Below are positions 594 to 12,636 of a stretch of DNA of 31,172 bases, one piece after another. The translations under genes and the position numbers were made by a program. The DNA is from Thainema sp. (lineage in GTDB: Bacteria; Cyanobacteriota; Cyanobacteriia; Phormidesmidales; Phormidesmidaceae): contig JBQLZK010000071.1 of assembly GCA_052168235.1 (NCBI GenBank), positions 1 through 31,172 of the forward strand. The letters run 5' to 3'. A model generated the notes under the pieces. That model did not search any database, was not told where the DNA came from, and saw only the letters and a program-made list of their open reading frames with translations. The stretch's first letter is position 1. Every line of letters starts with the position of its first letter.

Positions 594-1085
594 TTAAGCC
601 TGCCAGAAGTCCGTCAAGTTAGCCTCATCGATCAGGTACGCTGTTTCCCCATCGCGGATCGCGCGTTTGCCATGATGGGGAAACGTGCCAATATCAACCT
701 TGACCTGTTCGCCACCGACTAAATACACCAACTCCTGATCAAACGGATTCCGCAGATGGTGCGGCTTTTGAGGCAGACCAAACCCCAGGAAATCACCCGC
801 CGCAACTTCATATTCCGCTTCGTCAATCTCGGCAATGCCTCGACCCGATAAGATATAAATCCATTCTTCTTCATTACTGTGGGCGTGGTAAATAAACGAT
901 TCTTTACCAGGAGGAATGCGAGCCAGGGTAACGCCGATCCGATTGAGTCCGGTGGCGCGACTGAGCGATCGCAGATACACTTCGGAATTGGGATTTAGCG
1001 GATGATGAAATTCAAACTCGCCAATTGCTTCAATATCGGCGGCTTTGAGCAGTGAGGGTTGAGATTCGGGCTGGGGCTGAGACAT
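594..1085 (-). CDS. Cupin domain protein
   Basis: Cupin motifs HAHSNEEEWIYILSGRG and PHHLRN. Start at ATG 1085 (MSQPQ) preferred over the longer ORF-track start at 1130. Confidence 0.85.
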   Translation of the reverse strand: MSQPQPESQPSLLKAADIEAIGEFEFHHPLNPNSEVYLRSLSRATGLNRIGVTLARIPPGKESFIYHAHSNEEEWIYILSGRGIAEIDEAEYEVAAGDFLGFGLPQKPHHLRNPFDQELVYLVGGEQVKVDIGTFPHHGKRAIRDGETAYLIDEANLTDFWQA

Positions 1086-1091
1086 AGGAAC

Positions 1092-1121
1092 TTGACATCC
1101 CGTTGAAACTTGCTTTAATTG
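1092..1121 (+). promoter_or_regulatory. Possible sigma70-type promoter for the Thr leader/thrS transcript
   Basis: Perfect TTGACA at 1092-1097 followed by TGC-TTTAAT (1111-1119). The -10 element is imperfect. Confidence 0.3.
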
Positions 1122-1146
1122 AGCTATCACTCAGTTTATTTCAACT

Positions 1147-1212
1147 ATGCAGCCGTCAATTCATTTGACTACCACCACTACGACCCAAACCACCCATCTG
1201 GGAGGGCTGTAG
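1147..1212 (+). CDS. Thr-rich leader peptide 1, MQPSIHLTTTTTTQTTHLGGL (21 aa, 8 Thr)
   Basis: ATG...TAG ORF with mixed Thr codons (ACT/ACC/ACG). Its last codons (GGGAGGGCTGT) are complementary to the 5' arm of the downstream terminator. Confidence 0.85.
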   Translation: MQPSIHLTTTTTTQTTHLGGL

Positions 1213-1243
1213 GTGCTGCGCTAGAATTGCAAGCTTACCGTTG

Positions 1244-1284
1244 AAACGGCCCTCCTGATCACCATCGGGAGGGCTGTTTGTTTT
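1244..1284 (+). terminator. Attenuator terminator 1
   Basis: AAACGGCCCTCCTGAT-CACC-ATCGGGAGGGCTGTTT forms a 16-bp stem (2 G-U) followed by GTTTT. Confidence 0.85.
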
Positions 1285-1292
1285 AGGTACGT

Positions 1293-1518
1293 AGCCCTCA
1301 CCCCCAGCCCCTCTCCCACGGGAGCTACTGTTTATATATAAGTCTCCTAGACTTCGCTTCGAGGTTGAGATCCCCCCTAGCCCCCCTTAAAAAGGGGGGA
1401 ATTGACTCAAAGTTCCCCCTTTTTAAGGGGGATTTAGGGGGATCAGTCCGGGATTTAGAAGGACTTTCAGAATGTGTATAAACAGTAGCTCCCGTGGGAG
1501 AGGGCTAGGGTGAGGGCT
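1293..1518. repeat. Nested palindromic dispersed repeat (REP/MITE-like)
   Basis: ~47-bp terminal inverted repeats (AGCCCTCACCC...CTCTCCCACGGGAGCTACTGTTTATA / TATAAACAGTAGCTCCCGTGGGAGAGGG...GGGTGAGGGCT) enclose an inner GATCCCCC..CCCCCTTAAAAAGGGGG..CCCCCTTTTTAAGGGGG..GGGGGATC palindrome (~1368-1444). Confidence 0.85.
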
Positions 1519-1545
1519 TTCCGAGTAATGTTACTTTCTAAACCA

Positions 1546-1602
1546 ATGTTCAGAATTACAACCACTACGACGACTACCACTACCACGCCGGGAGGGACGT
1601 GA
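1546..1602 (+). CDS. Thr-rich leader peptide 2, MFRITTTTTTTTTTPGGT (18 aa, 11 Thr; alternative in-frame ATG at 1528)
   Basis: Ten consecutive Thr codons using all four ACN codons. The ORF ends GGAGGGACG-TGA, complementary to CGCCCCTC in terminator 2. Confidence 0.88.
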   Translation: MFRITTTTTTTTTTPGGT

Positions 1603-1632
1603 CGATTGCGGCTGCCAAAACGCATTTAATTC

Positions 1633-1668
1633 GCCCCTCAAGTGCTCTTGGAGGGGTTTTTGTTATTT
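1633..1668 (+). terminator. Attenuator terminator 2
   Basis: GCCCCTCAAG-TGCT-CTTGGAGGGGT hairpin (one bulge) followed by TTTTTGTTATTT. Confidence 0.8.
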
Positions 1669-1715
1669 CAAATTAGCCTGCCATTGACTCATATCAAGTC
1701 TGTGTATAAGAACCC

Positions 1716-1768
1716 GATTTATTTTTTATGAAACGTTTGCTCTGCAAACGTTTCATAAAAAATAAATC
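1716..1768. repeat. Perfect 25-bp AT-rich inverted repeat in the thrS 5' region
   Basis: GATTTATTTTTTATGAAACGTTTGC-TCT-GCAAACGTTTCATAAAAAATAAATC. Confidence 0.9.
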
Positions 1769-1846
1769 ATGGGTTTTCAACAAGACTTCATATCACATTA
1801 ATTTCGTTAATTTACCCACTCATTCATCCACTAAAGGAGAACTCAA

Positions 1847-3058
1847 ATGGCTGACCATCGCGATTTCGCAAGAGATATGGATTTGTTTCACTTTGAAGAA
1901 CACAGCCCCGGCATGGTGTTCTGGCATCCCCAGGGCTGGCAGCTTTTCCGTAATGTTGAAGACTTCATGCGCCAAGAGTATCAGCATCATGGCTTTGACG
2001 AAGTGCGATCGCCCGTTGCCCTGAGCCGATCGCTGTGGCTGCGATCGCAACATTGGCAGAAGTTCCGCAATGGTATGTTTGTCGTGGGCAGTGCTGAATC
2101 TGAAGCACCAGAGGTGGACGCGGCAGTGGCTGTAGCAGAACCCGACTATGCGCTGAAGCCGATGTCCTGTCCAGCTCATATCGCCATTTTTCAGGCCCAT
2201 AAACGCAGCTATCGGCAGTTGCCCATGCGACTGATGGAGTTTGGCATGTGTCACCGCAATGAGCTATCGGGAACGCTGTCGGGCTGTATGCGGCTGCGGC
2301 AGTTTGTCCAGGATGATGCCCATATTTTTTGCCAGCCGGGGGATGTGCCCCAGGAAATTCAGCGCTTTCTGAGCATGGTGCAGCGGGTCTATCGGGCGTT
2401 TGGCTATGAGCGATTTTCGCTACAAGTGTCCCTGCGACCTGCCCAGCGCTTGGGTTCAGATGAACTGTGGGATCGAGCAGAGAACATTCTAATTGAGGCG
2501 GTGCAGTTGCTCCAGATGGACTTTGAGCTGGCTCCAGGGGAAGGCGCATTTTATGGGCCAAAGCTGGAAATTGCTTTGCACGATCATCTCGGTCGCTCTT
2601 GGCAGTGCGGTACGTTTCAGGTCGATTTCAATATGCCGCGTTTGTTTGACCTCTCGTTTGTCAATGCCGCAGGCGAGCTAGAGCAGCCAATTATGCTGCA
2701 CCAAGCGGTTTTGGGTTCCCTCGAACGCTGGATCGGTATTCTGCTGGAGCACCATGACGGAATTCTGCCGCTCTGGTTGGCTCCCACTCAAATTGCCGTC
2801 GCGCCCATTTCGGATAAATCCGCAGACTGGGCCGAAGCGATTTTCCAGCGACTCAAACAGCGCGGTATCCGAGTTGAAATGTGTGATCGCAATGGCACAA
2901 TCGGCAAGAAAATCCGCGATTTATCCCGCCGCCGCGTCCCGCTCATCGCCATTGTGGGCGAACAGGAAAGCGAACAGCAAACGCTCAATCTGCGGCGATT
3001 AGGAGAAAACAAGCAGGAGGAGATATCGCTAATTGAATTGGAAAATCGGTTGAGATGA
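1847..3058 (+). CDS. thrS: Threonine--tRNA ligase, short form (catalytic and anticodon-binding domains only; no TGS/editing domain)
   Basis: Starts at DHR..DLF. Motifs KPMSCPAH, HRNELSG..MRLRQFVQDDAHIF, GEGAFYGPK, QCGT.Q.DF and HQAVLGSLERWIG, plus a C-terminal anticodon domain. SD AAGGAGA upstream. Confidence 0.95.
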   Translation: MADHRDFARDMDLFHFEEHSPGMVFWHPQGWQLFRNVEDFMRQEYQHHGFDEVRSPVALSRSLWLRSQHWQKFRNGMFVVGSAESEAPEVDAAVAVAEPDYALKPMSCPAHIAIFQAHKRSYRQLPMRLMEFGMCHRNELSGTLSGCMRLRQFVQDDAHIFCQPGDVPQEIQRFLSMVQRVYRAFGYERFSLQVSLRPAQRLGSDELWDRAENILIEAVQLLQMDFELAPGEGAFYGPKLEIALHDHLGRSWQCGTFQVDFNMPRLFDLSFVNAAGELEQPIMLHQAVLGSLERWIGILLEHHDGILPLWLAPTQIAVAPISDKSADWAEAIFQRLKQRGIRVEMCDRNGTIGKKIRDLSRRRVPLIAIVGEQESEQQTLNLRRLGENKQEEISLIELENRLR

Positions 3059-3154
3059 ATCAGTTGGACTAGGGTTTATAACTAGAAGGTTTTGTTATAG
3101 AAGTGCTATAACAGAAGCGTTTATTTATGGGCAGCGATAACGCTTAGAGAACCT

Positions 3155-3946
3155 GTGGGCAAGGAAGTATATCGTTTAAATAAGCGTCGAAAGACTCTTG
3201 AAAAACTTCGCGAGTATTGGGAGCATCAAGAAAACATTCTCGTAGTTCATTATTCCTGCGAAAGCTTTCATGATAAATCTAACGATTCCACCTCAAGAAT
3301 TACTTCGATCGCTGTCAGAAACTTTGCTTCAGGTCAAACTGAATCATTTTCAATTCATAAGATTGCAGAACTGGAGAAACTTTCGAGTAATCAGATTGTT
3401 AATAACTATGATGAACTTGAACGAAAGATGCTGGATGAATTCTTCCAGTTTCTTTTAGAAAATCAGCGTTGCACATGGGTACATTGGAACATGAGAGATA
3501 TTAACTATGGATTTCAAGCACTTGAACATCGATATAAAGTTCTTGGTGGTCTTCCCACTCATCTAGGCGAAGATAGAAAACTTGACCTTTCTCGCACCTT
3601 AATCAACATCTATGGCAACAACTATATTGATCATCCTAGGCTTGGCAAGCTGATGGAAAAGAATAGGATTTCATCCATCAGCTTTTTATATGGAAAAGAT
3701 GAGGCCAAAGCCTTTGAGGCAAGAGAATTCGTTAAGCTCCATCAGTCAACTCTACGCAAAGTAAATGTAATTGCCAGTATCTTGGAAAGGACTTTACAAG
3801 ATGACTTAAAAACAAATGCAAAGTGGCATCAAACTCATGGCATCCATCCTAGAGCATTAGTTGAAATCATCACTGAAAATTGGATATGGAGCTTGGTTAC
3901 TATGACAGCCACTATCATCGGAATTACAAAATTCTTTTTAATGTGA
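3155..3946 (+). CDS. Hypothetical protein, possible degenerate 3'-5' exonuclease (RNase H-like) fold with C-terminal TM helix
   Basis: 263-aa AT-rich ORF. ERKMLDEFF and VHWNMRDINYGF resemble exonuclease-domain motifs; hydrophobic C-terminus WIWSLVTMTATIIGITKFFLM. Confidence 0.6.
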   Translation: MGKEVYRLNKRRKTLEKLREYWEHQENILVVHYSCESFHDKSNDSTSRITSIAVRNFASGQTESFSIHKIAELEKLSSNQIVNNYDELERKMLDEFFQFLLENQRCTWVHWNMRDINYGFQALEHRYKVLGGLPTHLGEDRKLDLSRTLINIYGNNYIDHPRLGKLMEKNRISSISFLYGKDEAKAFEAREFVKLHQSTLRKVNVIASILERTLQDDLKTNAKWHQTHGIHPRALVEIITENWIWSLVTMTATIIGITKFFLM

Positions 3947-3949
3947 GAA

Positions 3950-4072
3950 ATGGTAAATTCAAATCCTAAAGCGATTCTCCGAGCATGGGTTGAGGCGTTC
4001 AATCGGGCAGATGTTGAAACGCTTGTTTCTTTTTATACCGAGGACGCCATCAACCGAGTAGTGTCGTTCTGA
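3950..4072 (+). pseudogene. Truncated SnoaL/NTF2-like protein (40 aa)
   Basis: MVNSNPKAILRAWVEAFNRADVETLVSFYTEDAIN matches the SnoaL N-terminal pattern, then stops early. Confidence 0.65.
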
Positions 4073-4639
4073 TGAGTAAGTGTTAGTTAAACGACGCTTG
4101 CCGCCAATAGAGATATTAAAAAATAAGCTGTGGATAATGCTTGATTGATCTAAGTCAGTTTGGGTGATGGGCATTGGCCGAATAAATCAAATGCTAAAGA
4201 TTGGATTTTGATTTATCCAATGTTGCCCTAGATTTTGCATACAACCATTTAGATACTTGCATTTTACACTGATCTTTCAGAGGTTATTTGTTACCATAAT
4301 GCAGCGACAAATAATTCTTCTGGTTTCTGATTGGTGGAGTGCCAGCTGTGAGGATTACAATATTAAGCGAATAGCCTCAAGCATTGATAAACTGGAGCTG
4401 CAATGGTGTAGCCCCAGTTGGTGTTGAGGGCACGCTGTCATCTACTGTGCAACCACCTCACTTAACCTGTAATCGTTGTTAACCCAAGGCCGTAACCTGT
4501 ATTCACAATTTGTGCAGAGCATAGATTTGAGAGATAAGGTGAAAATAAGAGAAAAGTAATAGAGCTTTGGCGTTTATTACTGGCAACGATGATTTATGAT
4601 TGCTGCACGATTGACCCTTGGCGATCAGGTGACTCCCTC

Positions 4640-7408
4640 ATGAAGATTCTATTGGTTGAGGATGACGCGCAGATTGGACAGTTTCTATCCGCAACGCTAA
4701 CCACTCATCGCTACGCTGTAGATGTGGTGGCGGATGGTCAAACAGGTCTGGATTTGGCGATTGAGCGGGATTACGACGTGATCTTGCTCGATGTCCTGTT
4801 GCCCAAGCTGAATGGTATTGAAGTGTGCCGCACGTTACGACAGTACGGACGAACGACCCCAATTTTAATGTTGACGGGCAAAGGCACCAATGAAGATGTG
4901 GTCATGGGGCTAGATGCGGGCGCAGATGATTATGTCGTCAAACCCTGCGATCCCGCTCGGTTGCTAGCGCGGATTCGGGCGCTCTTGCGGCGTCAGGAGG
5001 CTACGTCATCGCTCATTCTCAGTTGGGGTGATCTACAGCTCGACTTAACGCTGATTCAAGCGACCTATCGTCAGCAAACGATTGCACTGAGCCCCAAGGA
5101 ATATAGCCTGCTGGAGCTGTTTTTGCGGCATCCCCAGCGCATTTTCAGCCGCAGCAACATTATTGATCGGCTCTGGTCAATTGATGACTCACCGACGGAT
5201 GCAGCTGTCACCAATTTAATTAAAGATCTACGGCGACGGCTGCGATCGGCAGGCATTGAGGAAGAAATGATCGAAACGGTCTACCGTTTGGGCTATCGGC
5301 TAAAAGCGCCACCCTCGAAAGCTGATTCGGCTGCTTCACCTACGAGCGACACCGCCGGTTCGGCGAACTCGCCGTCTTCGCCAGCGACTCCCGCGCCGCA
5401 ATCACCTGAACCAGCAGATGCGCTAGTGGCTGATTCATTAGCGGAACGGCAGCGGGCTGATGCGTTGAATCAAACTGTTTCATCTGTTCCGTTGAACCAG
5501 TCGGCTCTGTATCAATCCGAATTTAGTTCACAATCTAGTCCAGTATCAGAGTCAGGGGCTAGCCCAGACCAGGCCAAGCAAGAAGGACTGCTACTGCTGC
5601 AGCAAGCGATACAGGATTTTCGGGCGTCGCTGCCGAGTCGGATGCAGAGCTTAGAGACTGCCATCCAGCAGCTGCAAATCCAACTAGGGGAGGATCAGTT
5701 CGCTGACCCCGTGTCAGACCCGGCATCAGACCAGACATTAGACCAGACATCAGCAGACCAGGCATCAGATGCAAGTGATTCTTGGTCAGCTTTGGTTTTA
5801 ATTGTGGCTCAGATTCGGGATCAGGCGCATCGACTAGCGGGCGGACTGGGCACATTTGGCTATACCAAAGCGGGGCAGTTGGCACAGACAATTGAGCAAA
5901 TGCTGGATGCGTGGCTCAATGCTGGCTCAGCGGATGGAGACAGAGATGAGGCTGGGGATACAACGGCTCGTCGTCAAGCCATTCAGCAACTGGTTAATCC
6001 GATTACTACTCTGCTAGCTGACTTAAAACAAGCGACGGTGAGCGACCCAGAAACGCCGATGATTTCTATGCCGGAGGTTGCGGTCGATGCTCTCCCGATG
6101 TCCCAGCTATCGATTGTCGTGATGGATGATGATCATTCATTTACTCAACTGCTCCAGCAGATTGCGCTGCTGCGGAATGCTGAGGTTGATGTGGTGCTTG
6201 ATGAGTCGGGTTTGTGGCAGCGGTTGCAGGCCCAGGTGCCCAGTGTTCTGCTGTTGAGCTTGAACATTGAGGGGATGTCTCATGCATTACTGGACTTACT
6301 GGAGCAGGTCACGGAGCGCTATCCGGATCTGCCAGTGTTGGCATTAGCCGAGACCGATCAATTGCGCGATCGCATGTTGGTGACGCAAAAGGGGGGACGG
6401 GGCTATATTCTCAAGTCAGCTACGCTGGATGAGGTATTTGAAGCGATTCTGCTGGCGCTGCCCGCTACTCAGATGGGAGCCAAAGTTTTATTAGTGGATG
6501 ATGACTCCATCATGCTGAGCACCCTGGCGGCGCTACTTGAACCCCAGCGCTTGAACTTGACTACCCTCTCTAATCCGGCTCAGTTCTGGCAGGTGCTGAC
6601 GCAGATTCAGCCGGAGGTGCTGCTGTTGGATTTAGAAATGCCTCAATTTAACGGTTTGGAGCTGTGTCGGGTGGTGCGGCAGGATGCTCGCTATCGCAAT
6701 TTACCCATCCTGGTTGTCACAGCCTATACGGATGAAGACCGCTTGCAGAAGGCATTTGCGGCAGGGGCAGACGACTTTATTCGCAAGCCCGTTGAGCCCA
6801 AAGACTTTGTGATGCGGGTGCTGCGCCAAATCGAGAAAATGCGCCATCAGCGGCAGCAGCAGCAGCTGCAGCACCAGCAGCTTCAGACGTGGTACAACCA
6901 GGCGCGACAGGACACCTTAACGCGGGTGGCCAATCGTCGCTATTTTGATGAATTTTTGGCTCAGACTTGGCAGCAGTGTCAGCATCAGCAGATGTTTGTT
7001 TCGCTGATTTTGGCGGATGTCGATTTGTTCAAAGCCTACAACGACGCGCATGGACATGTGGCGGGCGATCAGTGTCTGCAGCAGATTGCCCGTGTGCTGC
7101 AGGACTGTGTGCAGTCGCGCCAAGATCTAGTGGCTCGCTATGGTGGAGAGGAATTTGCAGTCATTTTACCGGAGACGAATTTGAATGGTGCGCTACAGGT
7201 GGCCGAGCGGATTCGAGCTGCGATCGCAGATTTAAAGATTCGTCATCCTGATTCTCCAGTGAGTGACTATGTCACACTAAGCTTAGGGATTACTGGAGTT
7301 ATACCGTCCGATCGCCATTCGCCGCATGATCTAATTGCGATCGCAGATCAAGCTCTCTATGCTGCAAAAAAACGCGGTCGCAATACCTATTGCCTCTACC
7401 CGCTCTAG
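4640..7408 (+). CDS. Multidomain response regulator/diguanylate cyclase: REC-wHTH-Hpt-REC(pseudo)-REC-GGDEF
   Basis: MKILLVEDD REC; OmpR-type wHTH (LSPKEY..IETVYRLGYRL); Hpt AHRLAGGLG; REC LLVDDD..LLDLEMP; DTLTRVANRR..RYGGEEF. Confidence 0.92.
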   Translation: MKILLVEDDAQIGQFLSATLTTHRYAVDVVADGQTGLDLAIERDYDVILLDVLLPKLNGIEVCRTLRQYGRTTPILMLTGKGTNEDVVMGLDAGADDYVVKPCDPARLLARIRALLRRQEATSSLILSWGDLQLDLTLIQATYRQQTIALSPKEYSLLELFLRHPQRIFSRSNIIDRLWSIDDSPTDAAVTNLIKDLRRRLRSAGIEEEMIETVYRLGYRLKAPPSKADSAASPTSDTAGSANSPSSPATPAPQSPEPADALVADSLAERQRADALNQTVSSVPLNQSALYQSEFSSQSSPVSESGASPDQAKQEGLLLLQQAIQDFRASLPSRMQSLETAIQQLQIQLGEDQFADPVSDPASDQTLDQTSADQASDASDSWSALVLIVAQIRDQAHRLAGGLGTFGYTKAGQLAQTIEQMLDAWLNAGSADGDRDEAGDTTARRQAIQQLVNPITTLLADLKQATVSDPETPMISMPEVAVDALPMSQLSIVVMDDDHSFTQLLQQIALLRNAEVDVVLDESGLWQRLQAQVPSVLLLSLNIEGMSHALLDLLEQVTERYPDLPVLALAETDQLRDRMLVTQKGGRGYILKSATLDEVFEAILLALPATQMGAKVLLVDDDSIMLSTLAALLEPQRLNLTTLSNPAQFWQVLTQIQPEVLLLDLEMPQFNGLELCRVVRQDARYRNLPILVVTAYTDEDRLQKAFAAGADDFIRKPVEPKDFVMRVLRQIEKMRHQRQQQQLQHQQLQTWYNQARQDTLTRVANRRYFDEFLAQTWQQCQHQQMFVSLILADVDLFKAYNDAHGHVAGDQCLQQIARVLQDCVQSRQDLVARYGGEEFAVILPETNLNGALQVAERIRAAIADLKIRHPDSPVSDYVTLSLGITGVIPSDRHSPHDLIAIADQALYAAKKRGRNTYCLYPL

Positions 7409-7425
7409 CAGGTTTCAATGGCATC

Positions 7426-10400
7426 ATGAGCCAACCATCCAAGTTATTTCAGTCATTTAAGTCATCTAAACCGCCTGATTTTTCATCGAACAGACAAAAC
7501 TGGTTGGCCAAAATCCCGCTGCGAGTATTGCTGACGGTGCCCTTTGTGATTCAACTAGTCGGCGCAGTTGGCTTAGTTGGTTATTTGTCTTACCGCAGTG
7601 GCCAGCAATCAGTTGCAGATTTGGCGGATCATTTGGTTAAAGAGACGGGTGCGCGCGTTGCCCAAAAGCTCGATAGTTATCTACAAGGGGCACAACAGGT
7701 TAATCAAGCAAGTGTTGCAGCTTTGGAATCTGGCGCAATTCGCCTCGATGATCTCGACCAGCTTCATCGCTATCTGATCTTGCAGCATCGGCACTATCCA
7801 GACATTACCAGTTTTCACTTTGGCAATCCCAACGGTGATTTTCGGCTCATTCATCACTTGGAGCCGTCGGAAGTTGAAGCCGGGCTGACTCAGCTCCAAT
7901 CCACAGACTTACCGTTTGAAGCTGGACAGTCCGATCCAAATCTGCCCAGCCGCTTAAATCTATATGCCATTGATCAAAAAGGGAATCTAGGACGTTTTCT
8001 AGGGTCGCTTGACAACATTGATGTGCGAGAGCGCCCCTGGTATCGTCGCGCGGTTGAGACTAAGCAACCGGGCTGGAGCGAGCCGTTTCAAATTGGGGGG
8101 TCGAATCTGCTGGCCGTCAATGCCTATGCGCCTGCATATGACGCGACCCAGCAGCTACAGGGCGTATTTTCCGTCAATCTCAGTTTTGAGCGTTTGGATC
8201 AATTTCTGGAAACGCTCTCAGTGGGTGAAACTGGGCAGGTCTTTATCTTAGAAAAGAATGGCTTACTGCTGGCTAGTTCAGCCGAAGAACCGGAGTATCT
8301 TACCTCCAGATCTGAACCGTTAGAAACATCCAATGATGCTGCACCCGCGAATCAACCAGGAATCATCCAGTTTCAACGATTGGCGGCATCTGAAAGTTCA
8401 AATCCGCTCATTAAACATGCTGCCCAGCAGTTGAATTTTACCTTTAGTGATCTCAACGCAATTACGTCCACACAAAAGCTCACGTTTCGCGAACAAGGTA
8501 AGCTGCATTATCTTTGCGTGTTTCCGTATCAAGATGCGTATGGCTTGGATTGGCTAGTGGTGACGGTGGTGCCAGAAACTGATTTTATGGCTCAGATTCA
8601 TGCGAATCAGCGCCGAACGATTGGGTTATGCGTGTTGACCTTTGGGTTGGCGTTGGGAACGGGTCTATTAACGGCTCACTGGATTGCGGCTCCGATTCGG
8701 CGGTTACAGCAGGCGGCAGATGCGATCGCACGTGGGCAGTTTGATACACCAATTCCAATAGGTGGCGTTGGCGAAGTGGCTCAGTTAGCTGAGCAGTTTC
8801 AGCGGATGGCTTACCAGCTCAGCATCTTTTTTGAAACGGCTCAGGCGAGCGAGGAAAAATTTGCCAGCCTGCTCGATGATTTACCGATTGGGGTCAGTGT
8901 CCTAGATGCGTCGGGACAACGAGTCTACACGAATTGGGTGGGGCAACAGATGCTGGGGCACAATCTGGATCAAGGCTTACTGACGTTGTCGTTTAATCAG
9001 CTCCTGGATAGGTTTCCGGTCTATGTAGCCGGGACTCAAACCCTTTATCCCAGAGATCAGTTGCCGGTTGTGCGATCGCTACAGGGAGAGTCGGTGACGG
9101 CTGATGATATTGAGATTGAAATCAACGGTCAGCGCATCCCGCTGGAGGTACGAACCATTCCCATTTGGGATGAACAGGGGCAGGTGATTTATATCATCAA
9201 TGTGTTTCAGGATATTACTGAACGTCGTAAGGCGGCTCAGCTACAGGAGCGCTATCAGCGCGATCTGGAACAAGCCCTGGCGCATCAAGCGGAAGCCTTT
9301 TTGCAATCAGAAGCGCGATTTCGGTTTGCGGTGGATCAAATGCCGGATGTGTTTGCACTTTACGATGCGGAACGGCGGTTTCAGTTTGTCAATGCCCAGG
9401 GCATTGAGCAGAGTGGGTTAACTCTGGAGGATCACCTCGGTAAGCGAGATGAAGATCTGTATTCGCCAGAGGTGACGGATGCCTATTTGCCGCTGCTGAA
9501 AACTGCGATCGCAACTCGCTCCATTCAAACAGGGGAATGTACGATTACCTTACCGGATCGGGAACCATTTACCATCATCGTTAAATATGCCCCGCTGCTA
9601 GATAGTAAAGGCAATATTCAGCAAATTTTGGCTCTGACCTACGACATCACGTCGCGTAAACGAGCTGAACAGGCTCTCCAAGACAGTGAAGAGCGGTTCC
9701 GTCAAATTGCTGAAACGATTAACCAAGTTTTTATGGTTCGAGATGCCGACTCAGGTCAGTTTCTCTATATCAGTCCGGCCTATGAAAGCATTTGGGGCCG
9801 AAGCTGCCAGAGCCTGTATCAAGATCCAGAATCCTGGCTAGAGGCGATTCATCCAGACGATTTACCGATTGTGCAACAGTCGCTCCAGCAGCAGTTCAGT
9901 GGTCAACGCACCCACCGCGAATATCGAATTCAGCGTTCCGACGGTACGATTCGCTGGATTCGCGCGGCTATTTCAACTGTGCGAGATGAACAGGGCAATG
10001 TGGTGCGCCATGTCGGTCTGGCTGAAGATATCACTGAGCGTAAACAGGCTGAACTGGCGCTGCAATTCACGACTCAGCAGTTGCAGACATTTTTGAATAA
10101 TGCTCCGGTGATTATCAGCTTGTTTGATGCGGAAGGGCGTTATTTGCAGGTTAATCCAGCTTTTGCAGCCCTCCTTGATCGCTCAGCCGCCGATATTGTA
10201 GGTCAGAAATTTACTGATCTTCATCCTGCCGCTGTTGTCGATCGGTTTCACGCCCGCTTAAAGCAGATCATAGAGAGCGGTTTGCCGCTGCAAGTAGACG
10301 ATGAAATTGTCTTAGATGGCGAGGTTAAAACATTTCAGTCCATCCTGTTTCCGGTCATGGATGAGCAGGGTCTACCTAGCACCTTTTGGGCCATCTCAAC

Positions 10401-12636
10401 GGATATCAGCGATCGCAAACGAACGGAACAGGCTTTGCAGGAAAGCGAAGCCCGCCTTCAGCTGATTACCGATTCACTGCCTGGCTGTATTTCCTACATT
10501 GATGCATCGCAGCGCTATCAGTTTGTCAATCGAGTTTATGAACAGTGGTTTGACCTGCGTAGGGAAGATATTCTGGGCTGTACGGTGGAAGAGATCATTG
10601 GGACAGATGCGTATCAGGTGGTACGCCCTTATCTTGAACGAGCGCAAGCGGGCGAAACGGTAACATTTGAAAATGAATTGTCTGATCAGCCAGGAAAGCC
10701 GCGTTATCTATTTGGGGTTTTTGTGCCGGATCTGGATGCCGAAGGTAAGGTACGGGGAGTTTATGCTCTCATTACGGACATTAGCGATCGCAAGCAGTTT
10801 GAACTGGCGCTGCAAGAGGCGAATGCGCGGCAGCAGGCGATTTTGTCGGGCCTGCCTGATCTGATGTTTGTTGTTGATGCGAATGGCCTCCTATTGGAGA
10901 AAGTGACTCATCGCCCCCAACTGGATCTGTTTGTGCCGGGGGCTGGGAAAATCCAGGACTCAATTTTCTGTGTCGGGTCGCCCGAAAATATCGCCATGAA
11001 GCAGGCTGCCATCCAGCAGGTACTCACGTCTGGAATAACCTATGTCTATGAGCAGCAGGTGGAGCGGGACGGCAAAGCGTGGTATGAAGAAGTGCGCTGT
11101 GTGCCAATGCTGGGCAATCGAGTCCTGTTTATGATTCGTGATATTAGCGATCGCAAACAGGCGGAACTTTTACTTCAGGAAACAAATGCGCGGCAGCAGG
11201 CGATTTTGTCGGTCATGCCGGATCTGATGTACGTTGTGGCGATAGACGGCACGATTTTAGGTCAGGTTACGTTTCGGCCCAAGCGCGATCTATTCCCCGT
11301 TGACCAGTCGATTTCCGACGTCACGATTTTTGATGTTGGCCCACCTGAGATAAGTCGTCGCAAAATGCTGGCGCTGCGTACCGCACTGGCCACCCGAACC
11401 GTGCAGACCTATGAACAGCAGGTCGAAAAAGATGGTGAAACTTGGCACGAAGAAGTGCGCTGTGTGCCGATGCCAAGAGATCGGGTGCTGTTCATGTTCC
11501 GCGATATTAGCGATCGCAAACGGGCCGAGGAAGAACTGAAGCAAAGCGAAGATCGGTTCCGTAAAGCCTTTGACAATGCTCCTATCGGCATGGCGCTGGT
11601 GGCACCGATGACCGGGCGATTTCTGCGCGTCAATCGCGAGCTGCAGCAAATTTTGGGCTATTCCGAAGCGGAACTGCTCCAGCTTTCGTTTCAAGAGATT
11701 ACCCATGTCGATGATCTCAAAGCTGACCTTGACGGACGGCAGCGATTAATTATGGGTAACATTCGGCAATACCAAGTTCAAAAGCGATATATCCATAAGC
11801 AAGGACATATTGTGCGAGTCTTGCTGAGTTCATCGGTGGTGCGCGATCAGGCCGATGACCCGCTGTATTTTGTCACTCATATCTTGGACATCAGCGATCG
11901 CTACCGGATTGACCGGATGAAGGACGAATTTATTTCCATCGTCAGTCATGAACTGCGCACCCCGCTGACGGCAATTCGCGGCTCACTCGGTATTTTGGAA
12001 TCGGGCGTGCTCGATAATGAGCCGGATCAGATTCAAGCCATGCTGAAAATCGCCTCAAACAATAGCGAGCGGCTGGTGCGCTTAGTCAATGACATCTTAG
12101 ATTTAGAGCGGCTGGAATCCGGCAAAGTTGAACTGCTCATGCAAAAGTGTTCAGTTGCGGCGGTTATCCAGGATGCTATTGGAGCCGTCTCTGCGATCGC
12201 AGATGCCAACAGCATCACCCTCTCTGTTTCGCAGGTTGAAGCCAGTCTCTATGCCGCGCCAGATGCGATTGTGCAAACCCTAACCAATTTGCTGAGCAAT
12301 GCCATCAAGTTTTCCGACCCTGGCAGCACCGTCTGGCTAACGGCTGGCCCTGCGGCAGCGGCAATGCCTGATGTGACTAACCCTAGTGCGACCTATTGGC
12401 AATTCTCAGTCCGCGACCAAGGGCGAGGAATTCCGGTGGATAAACGAGATATAATCTTTCAGCGCTTTCAGCAGATTGATGTATCTGATGCGCGGCAAAA
12501 AGGTGGTACAGGTTTAGGCTTAACGATTTGCCAGACCATTATTCGGCAGCATGGCGGGCAAATTTGGATTGAGAGTGAAGTAGGCCAGGGTAGTATCTTT
12601 TGCTTTACAATCCCTTGCTGGAGGAACGAAGTGTGA
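7426..12636 (+). CDS. Membrane sensor histidine kinase: Cache-HAMP-multiple PAS/PAC-HisKA-HATPase
   Basis: Two TM segments, Cache RPWY motif, HAMP, about eight PAS/PAC units ending DI(T/S)xRK, SHELRTPLT, NLLSNAIKF, DQGRGI and GGTGLGL. Start at ATG 7426 preferred. Confidence 0.93.
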   Translation: MSQPSKLFQSFKSSKPPDFSSNRQNWLAKIPLRVLLTVPFVIQLVGAVGLVGYLSYRSGQQSVADLADHLVKETGARVAQKLDSYLQGAQQVNQASVAALESGAIRLDDLDQLHRYLILQHRHYPDITSFHFGNPNGDFRLIHHLEPSEVEAGLTQLQSTDLPFEAGQSDPNLPSRLNLYAIDQKGNLGRFLGSLDNIDVRERPWYRRAVETKQPGWSEPFQIGGSNLLAVNAYAPAYDATQQLQGVFSVNLSFERLDQFLETLSVGETGQVFILEKNGLLLASSAEEPEYLTSRSEPLETSNDAAPANQPGIIQFQRLAASESSNPLIKHAAQQLNFTFSDLNAITSTQKLTFREQGKLHYLCVFPYQDAYGLDWLVVTVVPETDFMAQIHANQRRTIGLCVLTFGLALGTGLLTAHWIAAPIRRLQQAADAIARGQFDTPIPIGGVGEVAQLAEQFQRMAYQLSIFFETAQASEEKFASLLDDLPIGVSVLDASGQRVYTNWVGQQMLGHNLDQGLLTLSFNQLLDRFPVYVAGTQTLYPRDQLPVVRSLQGESVTADDIEIEINGQRIPLEVRTIPIWDEQGQVIYIINVFQDITERRKAAQLQERYQRDLEQALAHQAEAFLQSEARFRFAVDQMPDVFALYDAERRFQFVNAQGIEQSGLTLEDHLGKRDEDLYSPEVTDAYLPLLKTAIATRSIQTGECTITLPDREPFTIIVKYAPLLDSKGNIQQILALTYDITSRKRAEQALQDSEERFRQIAETINQVFMVRDADSGQFLYISPAYESIWGRSCQSLYQDPESWLEAIHPDDLPIVQQSLQQQFSGQRTHREYRIQRSDGTIRWIRAAISTVRDEQGNVVRHVGLAEDITERKQAELALQFTTQQLQTFLNNAPVIISLFDAEGRYLQVNPAFAALLDRSAADIVGQKFTDLHPAAVVDRFHARLKQIIESGLPLQVDDEIVLDGEVKTFQSILFPVMDEQGLPSTFWAISTDISDRKRTEQALQESEARLQLITDSLPGCISYIDASQRYQFVNRVYEQWFDLRREDILGCTVEEIIGTDAYQVVRPYLERAQAGETVTFENELSDQPGKPRYLFGVFVPDLDAEGKVRGVYALITDISDRKQFELALQEANARQQAILSGLPDLMFVVDANGLLLEKVTHRPQLDLFVPGAGKIQDSIFCVGSPENIAMKQAAIQQVLTSGITYVYEQQVERDGKAWYEEVRCVPMLGNRVLFMIRDISDRKQAELLLQETNARQQAILSVMPDLMYVVAIDGTILGQVTFRPKRDLFPVDQSISDVTIFDVGPPEISRRKMLALRTALATRTVQTYEQQVEKDGETWHEEVRCVPMPRDRVLFMFRDISDRKRAEEELKQSEDRFRKAFDNAPIGMALVAPMTGRFLRVNRELQQILGYSEAELLQLSFQEITHVDDLKADLDGRQRLIMGNIRQYQVQKRYIHKQGHIVRVLLSSSVVRDQADDPLYFVTHILDISDRYRIDRMKDEFISIVSHELRTPLTAIRGSLGILESGVLDNEPDQIQAMLKIASNNSERLVRLVNDILDLERLESGKVELLMQKCSVAAVIQDAIGAVSAIADANSITLSVSQVEASLYAAPDAIVQTLTNLLSNAIKFSDPGSTVWLTAGPAAAAMPDVTNPSATYWQFSVRDQGRGIPVDKRDIIFQRFQQIDVSDARQKGGTGLGLTICQTIIRQHGGQIWIESEVGQGSIFCFTIPCWRNEV

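Follow-up and report, generated by a model that had tools for sequence, protein, structure and literature searches.

Here, we studied a threonyl-tRNA synthetase (ThrRS) gene of the cyanobacterium Thainema sp. that is encoded on contig JBQLZK010000071.1 of assembly GCA_052168235.1 (positions 1 to 31,172 of the forward strand; this whole stretch of 31,172 nt is called the window in the following). The gene, named T3, codes for a naturally N-truncated ThrRS. Upstream of it, we find two consecutive threonine-rich leader open reading frames (ORFs), each followed by an intrinsic terminator. Given this arrangement, T3 is probably a charge-sensing backup ThrRS placed behind two tandem ribosome-mediated attenuators. 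Directly observed are the anatomy of the region, the degree to which it is conserved, the fact that it is linked to T3, and the folding energies. The attenuators (1147-1661) are located outside the gene (1847-3058) to which the initial annotation was confined, and they are the strongest clue to the role of T3. The respective elements are as follows.

1092..1119, + strand: promoter-like element with -35 box TTGACA (1092-1097), 16-nt spacer and -10-like box TTTAAT (1114-1119); the block is conserved in the same-genus ortholog.
1147..1212, + strand: leader ORF 1, MQPSIHLTTTTTTQTTHLGGL followed by the stop codon; 8 Thr among 21 sense codons.
1200-1206, + strand: GGGAGGG, antiterminator 5' strand of leader 1.
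1244..1284, + strand: intrinsic terminator 1, 16-bp stem GCCCTCC...GGGAGGGC, then GTTTGTTTT; listed in the terminator scan.
1528..1602, + strand: leader ORF 2, MLLSKPMFRITTTTTTTTTTPGGT followed by the stop codon; 11 Thr among 24 sense codons.
1590-1596, + strand: GGGAGGG, antiterminator strand of leader 2.
1634..1661, + strand: intrinsic terminator 2, CCCCTCAAG-tgct-CTTGGAGGGG, then TTTTT.
1834..1839, + strand: Shine-Dalgarno (SD) sequence AAGGAG, 7 nt 5' of the T3 ATG.
1847..3058, + strand: T3, 403-aa N-truncated ThrRS; catalytic core at 2141-2755, anticodon-binding domain at 2789-3052.

Within leader ORF 2, ten threonine codons stand in a row, for which ACA, ACC, ACT and ACG are used, and its ending GGAGGGACGTGA is invariant or nearly so across loci. 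For both attenuators, two alternative foldings can be computed. The hairpin of terminator 1 has an energy of -26.3 kcal/mol, while the alternative pairing of 1200-1206 with 1249-1255 reaches -26.0 kcal/mol if folded without the 3' arm of this terminator. For terminator 2 (-13.7 kcal/mol), the respective antiterminator pairs 1590-1596 with 1634-1639, encloses a small hairpin and has -16.3 kcal/mol. The promoter-like element is not part of the generic promoter scan, since its -10 hexamer has a T at position 2.

Next, we compared 13 loci, i.e., the window and 12 orthologous loci, to which we added a further carrier genome (G415) and plasmid pREB2 of Acaryochloris. In the following, the attenuator nearer to T3 (leader 2) is called proximal and that of leader 1 distal. 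T3 is preceded by threonine-rich short ORFs with a GC-rich hairpin and a U-run behind each of them in 13/13 loci as well as in G415 and pREB2. Equivalents of leader 1 are present in 12/13 loci, G415 and pREB2 with the consensus M-K-x-A-I-A-L-T-T-T-T-T-x-T-I-H-L-G-G-S before the stop codon, and equivalents of leader 2 ending in TTTTITPGGT before the stop codon in 10/13 loci, G415 and pREB2; for locus L136, the leader scan listed no leader 2. A perfect TTGACA is located 52-58 nt before the leader 1 ATG in all 12 loci that have this leader. Each leader carries GGAGGG 3-6 nt before its stop codon, and this motif pairs with the CCCTCC of the terminator 5' arm when the 3' arm is withheld. Two features of a leader-peptide attenuator are found in the sequence, namely ORFs with threonine runs upstream of the gene and, by folding, a terminator with a mutually exclusive antiterminator that uses the 3' end of the leader.

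The terminator/antiterminator alternatives fold for 9/10 proximal and 11/12 distal elements, with no 5'-part fold obtained for the distal element of L130. For the proximal elements of L132 and L137, the whole stretch folds as antiterminator. Energies range from -16.3 to -24.8 (proximal) and from -18.2 to -26.0 kcal/mol (distal) for antiterminators and from -13.7 to -26.3 kcal/mol for terminators. RNAalifold recovers terminator 2 from the alignment of 10 sequences, of which 8-10 also keep a small hairpin CACGCC/GGxCGTG. Judged from its sequence, this hairpin can tie up part of GGAGGG as long as the RNA is free of ribosomes.

We also evaluated how specific this architecture is for T3. In the own genome (7.54 Mb), a stretch of 7 codons with 6 or more Thr near the stop codon occurs in just three short ORFs, two of which are the T3 leaders, and the architecture was not found elsewhere in that genome. 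A covariance model of the proximal element (R1) scores 76.9 bits at the terminator 2 site. Among 151 genomes of the class, its strong matches (E <= 1.5e-5) are located only directly 5' of T3 (6 genomes), and three weak matches are plain terminators. An additional scan of the own genome for leader attenuators of other amino acids returned 678 matches that are mostly Trp or Cys artefacts; the two inspected candidates (C47, C34) were rejected as they are the ends of ordinary ORFs.

The gene itself is intact. The initial annotation had described a 403-aa ThrRS ORF behind a strong SD sequence, which is confirmed. At the equivalent place, T3 orthologs carry AGGAGAA or GGAG. The protein starts at the residue that matches positions 241-242 of E. 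coli ThrRS (E. coli numbering is denoted Ec below). A longer N-terminus is impossible since the stop-to-stop frame spans only 407 codons, i.e., only 4 codons are open 5' of the start. Pfam identifies tRNA-synt_2b (PF00587; aa 99-303, E = 7.8e-45) and HGTP_anticodon (PF03129; aa 315-402, E = 1.6e-19) and no further domain in T3, such that TGS and tRNA_SAD are absent. With class II core and HGTP domain, T3 scores 464.2 bits for the NCBIfam ThrRS model TIGR00418 (thrS), above its curated cut-off of 383.65. The match covers model positions 171-562 of 565, thus the N-terminal third of the model is missing. That the upstream DNA is no remnant of N-terminal domains, as annotated before, holds as well: there is no trace of tRNA_SAD 5' of T3, where leader ORFs, terminators and repeats are found instead, and a PF07973 search gave no match on the contig.

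All three zinc ligands are in place, as had been noted, i.e., Cys108, His159 and His285 correspond to Ec C334, H385 and H511 in the alignment to E. coli ThrRS chains. The motif 2 and 3 arginines and the Thr/ATP-binding residues are present as well, with the residue roles being those of E. coli ThrRS. The same alignment reproduces the differences to E. coli reported earlier, namely TGHWDNY to SQHWQKF, KPMNC to KPMSC, HRA to HQA, DFNMP with Met at Ec489, and 14 extra residues ahead of KPM. Also the two HIP1 sites at 2005 and 2041 are real; the window holds 36 copies of GCGATCGC compared to 0.66 expected. T3 probably forms a class II dimer with an intact zinc-dependent threonine site.

To place these residues in context, we compared 115 T3 members with 45 canonical ThrRS (cyanobacterial and proteobacterial, picked from the examined loci). 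The catalytic positions Ec H309, M332, C334, R363, E365, R375, Q381, D383, H385, Y462, K465, Q479, T482, Q484, H511, S517 and R520 are kept in the T3 family, with shares of 98-100% of the 115 members for those from C334 to R520. Family-wide differences include Y290F, T295S, N333S, H371S, L373C, V376L, R512Q and F521W. Two of them, N333S and R512Q, lie next to the zinc ligands C334 and H511, respectively, and are found in 115/115 T3 members, while 45/45 canonical enzymes have N and R, respectively.

Next, we studied which other ThrRS genes accompany T3. The own genome (205 contigs, 99.99% complete) has three: T1 (606 aa, contig C131), a T2-like gene (623 aa, contig C119) and T3. The initial annotation had called T3 a second ThrRS; it is indeed extra to a full-length thrS, found as T1, but together with the T2-like gene this makes three ThrRS genes rather than two, with T3 as the third. 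T3 shares 39-43% identity (varying by method) with T1 and T2, compared to 51% between T1 and T2. The T2-like protein has its editing-domain insertion just before CWWDLCAGPH, and an insertion of this kind was described for Anabaena T2 (PMC4787780). A free-standing tRNA_SAD domain was not found in the own genome by a search that covers PF07973 only, such that an archaeal DTD-like editing domain is outside its scope; respective matches are restricted to AlaRS, T1 and T2. T3 is thus not a sole thrS with a separately encoded editing domain, and editing for T3 could come only in trans from T1 or T2. The earlier view of T3 as a natural ThrRS without editing domain is sustained, since it is conserved and accessory, its active site is intact and a full-length thrS (T1) is present in 14/14 T3-bearing genomes. 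From its sequence features, T3 is likely a working auxiliary ThrRS that lacks proofreading, with activity and error rate being predictions.

The T3 family comprises at least 115 database clusters of ~396-455 aa with 63-91% identity over nearly the full T3 length. Their source names include Leptolyngbya, Nodosilinea, Acaryochloris, Moorena, Crocosphaera, Pleurocapsa, Calothrix, Scytonema, Nostoc and Chlorogloeopsis. Among sampled genomes, T3 is found in 3/301 of the phylum and 14/401 of the class (E <= 1e-140); in the further carrier G415, the gene is cut by the contig end. A T2-like gene is present in three of the 14 T3 genomes (G000, G434, G469) and in none of the other 11. In Acaryochloris marina, T3 is located on three conjugative plasmids. 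Compared to its same-genus ortholog, T3 shows a ratio of nonsynonymous to synonymous substitution rates (dN/dS) of 0.044/0.709 (0.06) over 403 codons.

We also compared the T3 family with other ThrRS in trees based on the shared domains only (FastTree with 112 rows; quick IQ-TREE run under LG+G4 with 46 hand-picked rows). As had been proposed before, cyanobacterial and proteobacterial ThrRS were included. T3 is monophyletic (99*), is placed outside the cyanobacterial T1+T2 clade (99*) and groups with other proteins of ~404-416 aa (Shimodaira-Hasegawa-like approximate likelihood ratio test, SH-aLRT, 94), while deeper nodes are weak (support 54-70). Its nearest relatives are ThrRS of 394-415 aa from Vibrio, Photobacterium, Xenorhabdus, Marinomonas, Hahella, Gynuella and others. 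Of this gamma-proteobacterial sister family (P0124, P0290-P0357), 68 members have the MxxHR start in common with T3 and also its hallmarks (Y290F 68/68, N333S 67/68, R512Q 68/68, F521W 68/68), with Gly at Ec463 in 68/68. Given the tree and these shared hallmarks, T3 belongs to an older class of naturally N-truncated ThrRS and is no recent cut-down version of T1 or T2. Nor is it of the Anabaena T2 type, as it has no N2 domain and stands outside T1+T2 (99* branch). The sister family was found in 0/400 sampled genomes of its class at E <= 1e-130 and gave no plasmid match at E <= 1e-125. Independent of T3, the trees revealed that the 640-650-aa ThrRS of loci L012-L019 (family f18, genomes of 1.6-2.7 Mb) nests in gamma/zeta-proteobacterial ThrRS (99*) and not in T1/T2, which suggests an old replacement by transfer in these small-genome cyanobacteria.

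Taken as a mechanism, T3 would be transcribed from its own promoter through both attenuators. When Thr-tRNA(Thr) is plentiful, ribosomes would reach the leader stop codons and cover GGAGGG, such that the CCCTCC...GGAGGG hairpin and the U-run form and transcription ends. When charged tRNA(Thr) is scarce, ribosomes would stall in the Thr run and GGAGGG could pair with the terminator 5' arm. T3 would be made only after both terminators are overcome, and would then act as an emergency charger that restores Thr-tRNA(Thr) when T1 fails, be it by zinc shortage, an inhibitor or threonine shortage. If T3 makes any Ser-tRNA(Thr), only T1 or T2 would be able to clear it, acting in trans. Here, we infer that the leaders are translated and that transcripts end or read through at the terminators in vivo, and likewise the activity and error rate of the enzyme.

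Several observations weigh against T3 being such a charge-controlled backup. The leader of the window is interrupted by two repeats that resemble miniature inverted-repeat transposable elements (MITEs):

1293..1518, no strand: MITE-like repeat with terminal inverted repeats of ~44 nt, between attenuator 1 and leader 2.
1688..1793, no strand: palindromic MITE-like repeat with 50-nt arms that are 78% complementary, between terminator 2 and the SD sequence.

These repeats have 123 and 228 blastn high-scoring segment pairs in the own genome, respectively, and both are absent from the T3 leaders of all orthologous loci, where 30-45 nt separate terminator and SD sequence. The first stops 10 nt short of leader ORF 2, an ORF that lacks an SD sequence here, and the second is a hairpin with 50-bp arms just before the SD sequence of T3. 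Given the two interruptions, T3 regulation in this strain may be altered or lost. Among the other loci, the second leader is degenerate in L134 and L141 and the first one is missing in L140, and the T3 gene of genome G534 is interrupted by a premature TAG. Support from base pair covariation is weak: 5/25 RNAalifold pairs show a compensatory change, the antiterminator helix is paired in 98.3% of the alignment cells with 4/6 pairs that never vary and 2 one-sided ones, and shuffles equal its observed covariation measures in 177-446 of 500 cases. That is, covariation is uninformative because the helices are so conserved. Finally, no Rfam family, the enterobacterial Thr leader included, matches 1000-4600 (cmscan, E <= 1) apart from chance-level microRNA and small RNA hits.

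Two side observations concern these elements. The T3 gene with the premature TAG (G534:C45, locus L138) yields a 325-aa product that is named 'aminoacyl-tRNA ligase-related protein' in the database, and both leaders are still found upstream of it. The long palindrome at 1691-1793 was considered as operator or Zur box and rejected, since it belongs to a repeat with many copies and the orthologs lack it.

One reading of the insertions is that the cassette is silenced or decaying in this strain, i.e., the MITE-like repeats uncouple T3 from its leaders and T3 is a passenger. In its favour, the two repeats occur only in this genome's leader, one abutting leader ORF 2 and one forming a long hairpin before the SD sequence. 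We consider it quite improbable, as the T3 ORF, both leaders and both terminators are intact, each repeat sits just 3' of a terminator and within no functional element, and dN/dS compared to the same-genus ortholog is 0.06. Very improbable is a role outside translation, in which T3 would supply threonyl-adenylate or Thr-tRNA to a secondary pathway or serve as a regulator. Truncated aminoacyl-tRNA synthetase paralogs with new roles are known (PMC4787780, PMC9437257) and the T3 family has its own invariant substitutions near the active site, but all tested catalytic residues and the whole anticodon-binding domain are conserved, no conserved partner gene adjoins T3, and control by Thr codons suits a role in supplying Thr-tRNA.

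The remaining alternatives name a trigger. T3 may mainly be an inhibitor-insensitive ThrRS. In this case, T1 would be blocked by a natural inhibitor, e.g., borrelidin or obafluorin, uncharged tRNA(Thr) would open the attenuators, and a resistant T3 would stand in for T1. We regard this special case, i.e., the charge-sensing backup with the trigger named, as unlikely. The induction logic suits target inhibition, and the patchy, non-syntenic distribution, with conjugative plasmids in Acaryochloris, is like that of acquired resistance genes. Furthermore, G463S or G463A renders E. coli ThrRS resistant to both compounds and Ser464 accounts for the immunity of ObaO (PMC11252418), and 22 of the 115 T3 members have Ser (17) or Ala (5) at Ec463, often along with A460S and L489F, compared to 0/45 canonical ThrRS and 0/46 full-length relatives. 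However, Gly is retained in the window's T3 (Gly237), in 93/115 members and in all 68 sisters, such that the known resistance determinant is absent from T3 of the window. The initial annotation had based a possible tolerance on Met at Ec489, which is not supported: Met is a minority state there (7/115), and L489M E. coli ThrRS remains obafluorin-sensitive (PMC11252418). ObaO is, like T3, an extra ThrRS copy, but it is full length and encoded in a biosynthetic cluster, while none adjoins T3 in the 13 loci with their heterogeneous neighbours. Also, nothing is known that would link the hallmark substitutions to inhibitor binding, and PMC11252418 mentions none of them. A low-zinc backup, e.g., an enzyme that holds zinc more tightly and serves as alternative to the Zur-regulated T2 of Anabaena, seems doubtful to us. 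Here, zinc scarcity would deprive T1 of its metal and activity, charging would fall and open the attenuators, and T3 would function at low zinc. In its favour, low zinc causes T1 of Anabaena to dissociate and become inactive, and T2 takes its place (PMC4787780), 11/14 T3 genomes have no T2-like gene, the invariant N333S and R512Q flank zinc ligands, and T3 has metal-related neighbours on the Acaryochloris plasmids pREB2 and pREC2. On the other side, the 12 other chromosomal loci show no zinc-related neighbour, T2 accompanies T3 in 3/14 genomes including the own one, and the hallmark substitutions may instead compensate for the loss of the N-terminal domains. Since all three zinc ligands are kept, T3 also still needs the metal. 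No Zur box was seen 5' of T3, where none was specifically sought. Neither the zinc nor the inhibitor trigger is backed by a tested determinant in T3 of the window.

The genomic neighbourhood differs between loci, i.e., no neighbour gene is shared among the 13 T3 loci apart from the same-genus genome. In the window, T3 is surrounded by genes for glutathione peroxidase, a cupin and signalling proteins. The 263-aa ORF directly 3' of T3 (3155-3946) matches neither Pfam nor NCBIfam models, and no equivalent of it accompanies T3 in other genomes. Two overlapping ORFs are located within 4589-12636: the first encodes 939 aa and combines three receiver domains with an OmpR-type DNA-binding domain, Hpt and GGDEF, and it extends into the start of the second, a 1748-aa Cache-HAMP-multi-PAS histidine kinase; this pair is also found in the same-genus genome and is unlinked to T3 elsewhere. 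In 5/13 chromosomal loci, an antioxidant enzyme gene is located less than 5 kb from T3 (105-569 in the window; L130, L135, L139, L140), covering two glutathione peroxidases, a Mn catalase, an AhpC/TSA protein and a Fe/Mn superoxide dismutase, which may be chance. On pREB2 (L181, NC_009927.1), T3 adjoins a second cysS, cobW/COG0523, folE and M23 peptidases, where cysS is preceded by the Fur/Zur-box-like palindrome ATGAGAATGATTATCAT (5331-5347). On Acaryochloris pREC2 (L182, NZ_AP026077.1), T3 is placed beside a 'metal-binding protein' and a Fur-family regulator.

We also related T3 to known systems. Like T3, Bacillus subtilis thrZ is an auxiliary ThrRS gene beside a housekeeping thrS and has consecutive terminator-type leaders. 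It is silent until charging drops, and its product is a full-length enzyme that includes an editing domain. Upstream of Bacillus thrZ, 2 or 3 T-boxes stand side by side, which sense uncharged tRNA(Thr) by RNA, whereas the sensor of T3 would be a translated leader with Thr codons; T-boxes were found in 0/13 cyanobacterial genomes (PMC2494555 for the Bacillus leaders and the genome count). Streptomyces trpRS1 resembles T3 as an accessory aminoacyl-tRNA synthetase gene whose leader codons for its own amino acid lead to induction when charging is blocked. For Streptomyces coelicolor, Vecchione and Sello reportedly described in 2010 that trpRS1 is under ribosome-mediated attenuation. In contrast to the tandem arrangement of T3, it has a single attenuator, and it concerns another amino acid and another phylum with demonstrated resistance; TrpRS1 resistance (indolmycin) is listed in PMC9437257. 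Enterobacterial thrL and the pheST attenuator have, like the T3 leaders, a short ORF with Thr (and Ile) codons and alternative hairpins, but there is no sequence or covariance-model similarity, and the T3 element is tandem and would control a synthetase rather than biosynthesis genes.

Concerning the enzyme, E. coli residues 242-642, yeast mitochondrial ThrRS and crenarchaeal ThrRS-cat have the same domain content as T3, and PDB chains 1evk, 3ugq and 3a31 match T3 at E = 6e-112, 2e-75 and 6e-46, respectively. The E. coli ThrRS core charges tRNA and mischarges serine. In contrast to other ThrRS without editing domain, T3 is a bacterial, chromosomal or plasmid-borne third copy with predicted conditional expression. 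Crenarchaea complement ThrRS-cat with the separate editing protein ThrRS-ed, whereas a free-standing tRNA_SAD was not found in the own genome of T3. In Anabaena sp. PCC 7120, the extra copy T2 is a poor editor and T1 edits in trans (PMC4787780); T2 has all domains, is under Zur control and forms the sister of T1, whereas T3 has no N-terminal domains and is under predicted attenuator control.

Incomplete sequences were removed from the data set of PMC4787780, and a 2022 review lists only T2 and ThrRS-L as ThrRS duplicates (PMC9437257). A 2016 survey reports no reliable evidence of attenuation in cyanobacteria (PMC4833913). Our searches of the open-access literature yielded no paper that describes a truncated ThrRS or leader-peptide attenuation in cyanobacteria. 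The parts of the T3 system are of known kinds (class II synthetase, leader-peptide attenuator), while new are their combination, their occurrence in this phylum and their arrangement in tandem. Given that no T-boxes were found in 13 genomes and no reliable attenuation evidence was reported, a conserved tandem Thr attenuator would add a regulatory mechanism to the phylum, and T3 would serve as its clean reporter gene.

A bolder reading, which we put forward only tentatively, treats promoter, both Thr attenuators and T3 as a self-contained, horizontally mobile and charge-sensing cassette that would be the first case of ribosome-mediated attenuation in cyanobacteria. It further takes T3 and its gamma-proteobacterial sisters as a distinct old class of editing-less ThrRS, whose N333S, R512Q, Y290F and F521W may adapt the active site to function in the absence of an editing domain, e.g., through improved serine rejection, tighter zinc binding or inhibitor tolerance. 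T3 is a natural experiment in translational fidelity, i.e., a synthetase that lost its editing domain and that strong purifying selection nevertheless maintains in many lineages and on plasmids. It raises the questions of when error-prone charging is accepted, whether T1 or T2 proofread in trans, and which role the substitutions beside the zinc ligands play. Should an inhibitor or zinc shortage prove to be the trigger, the cassette would be a portable stress or resistance module.

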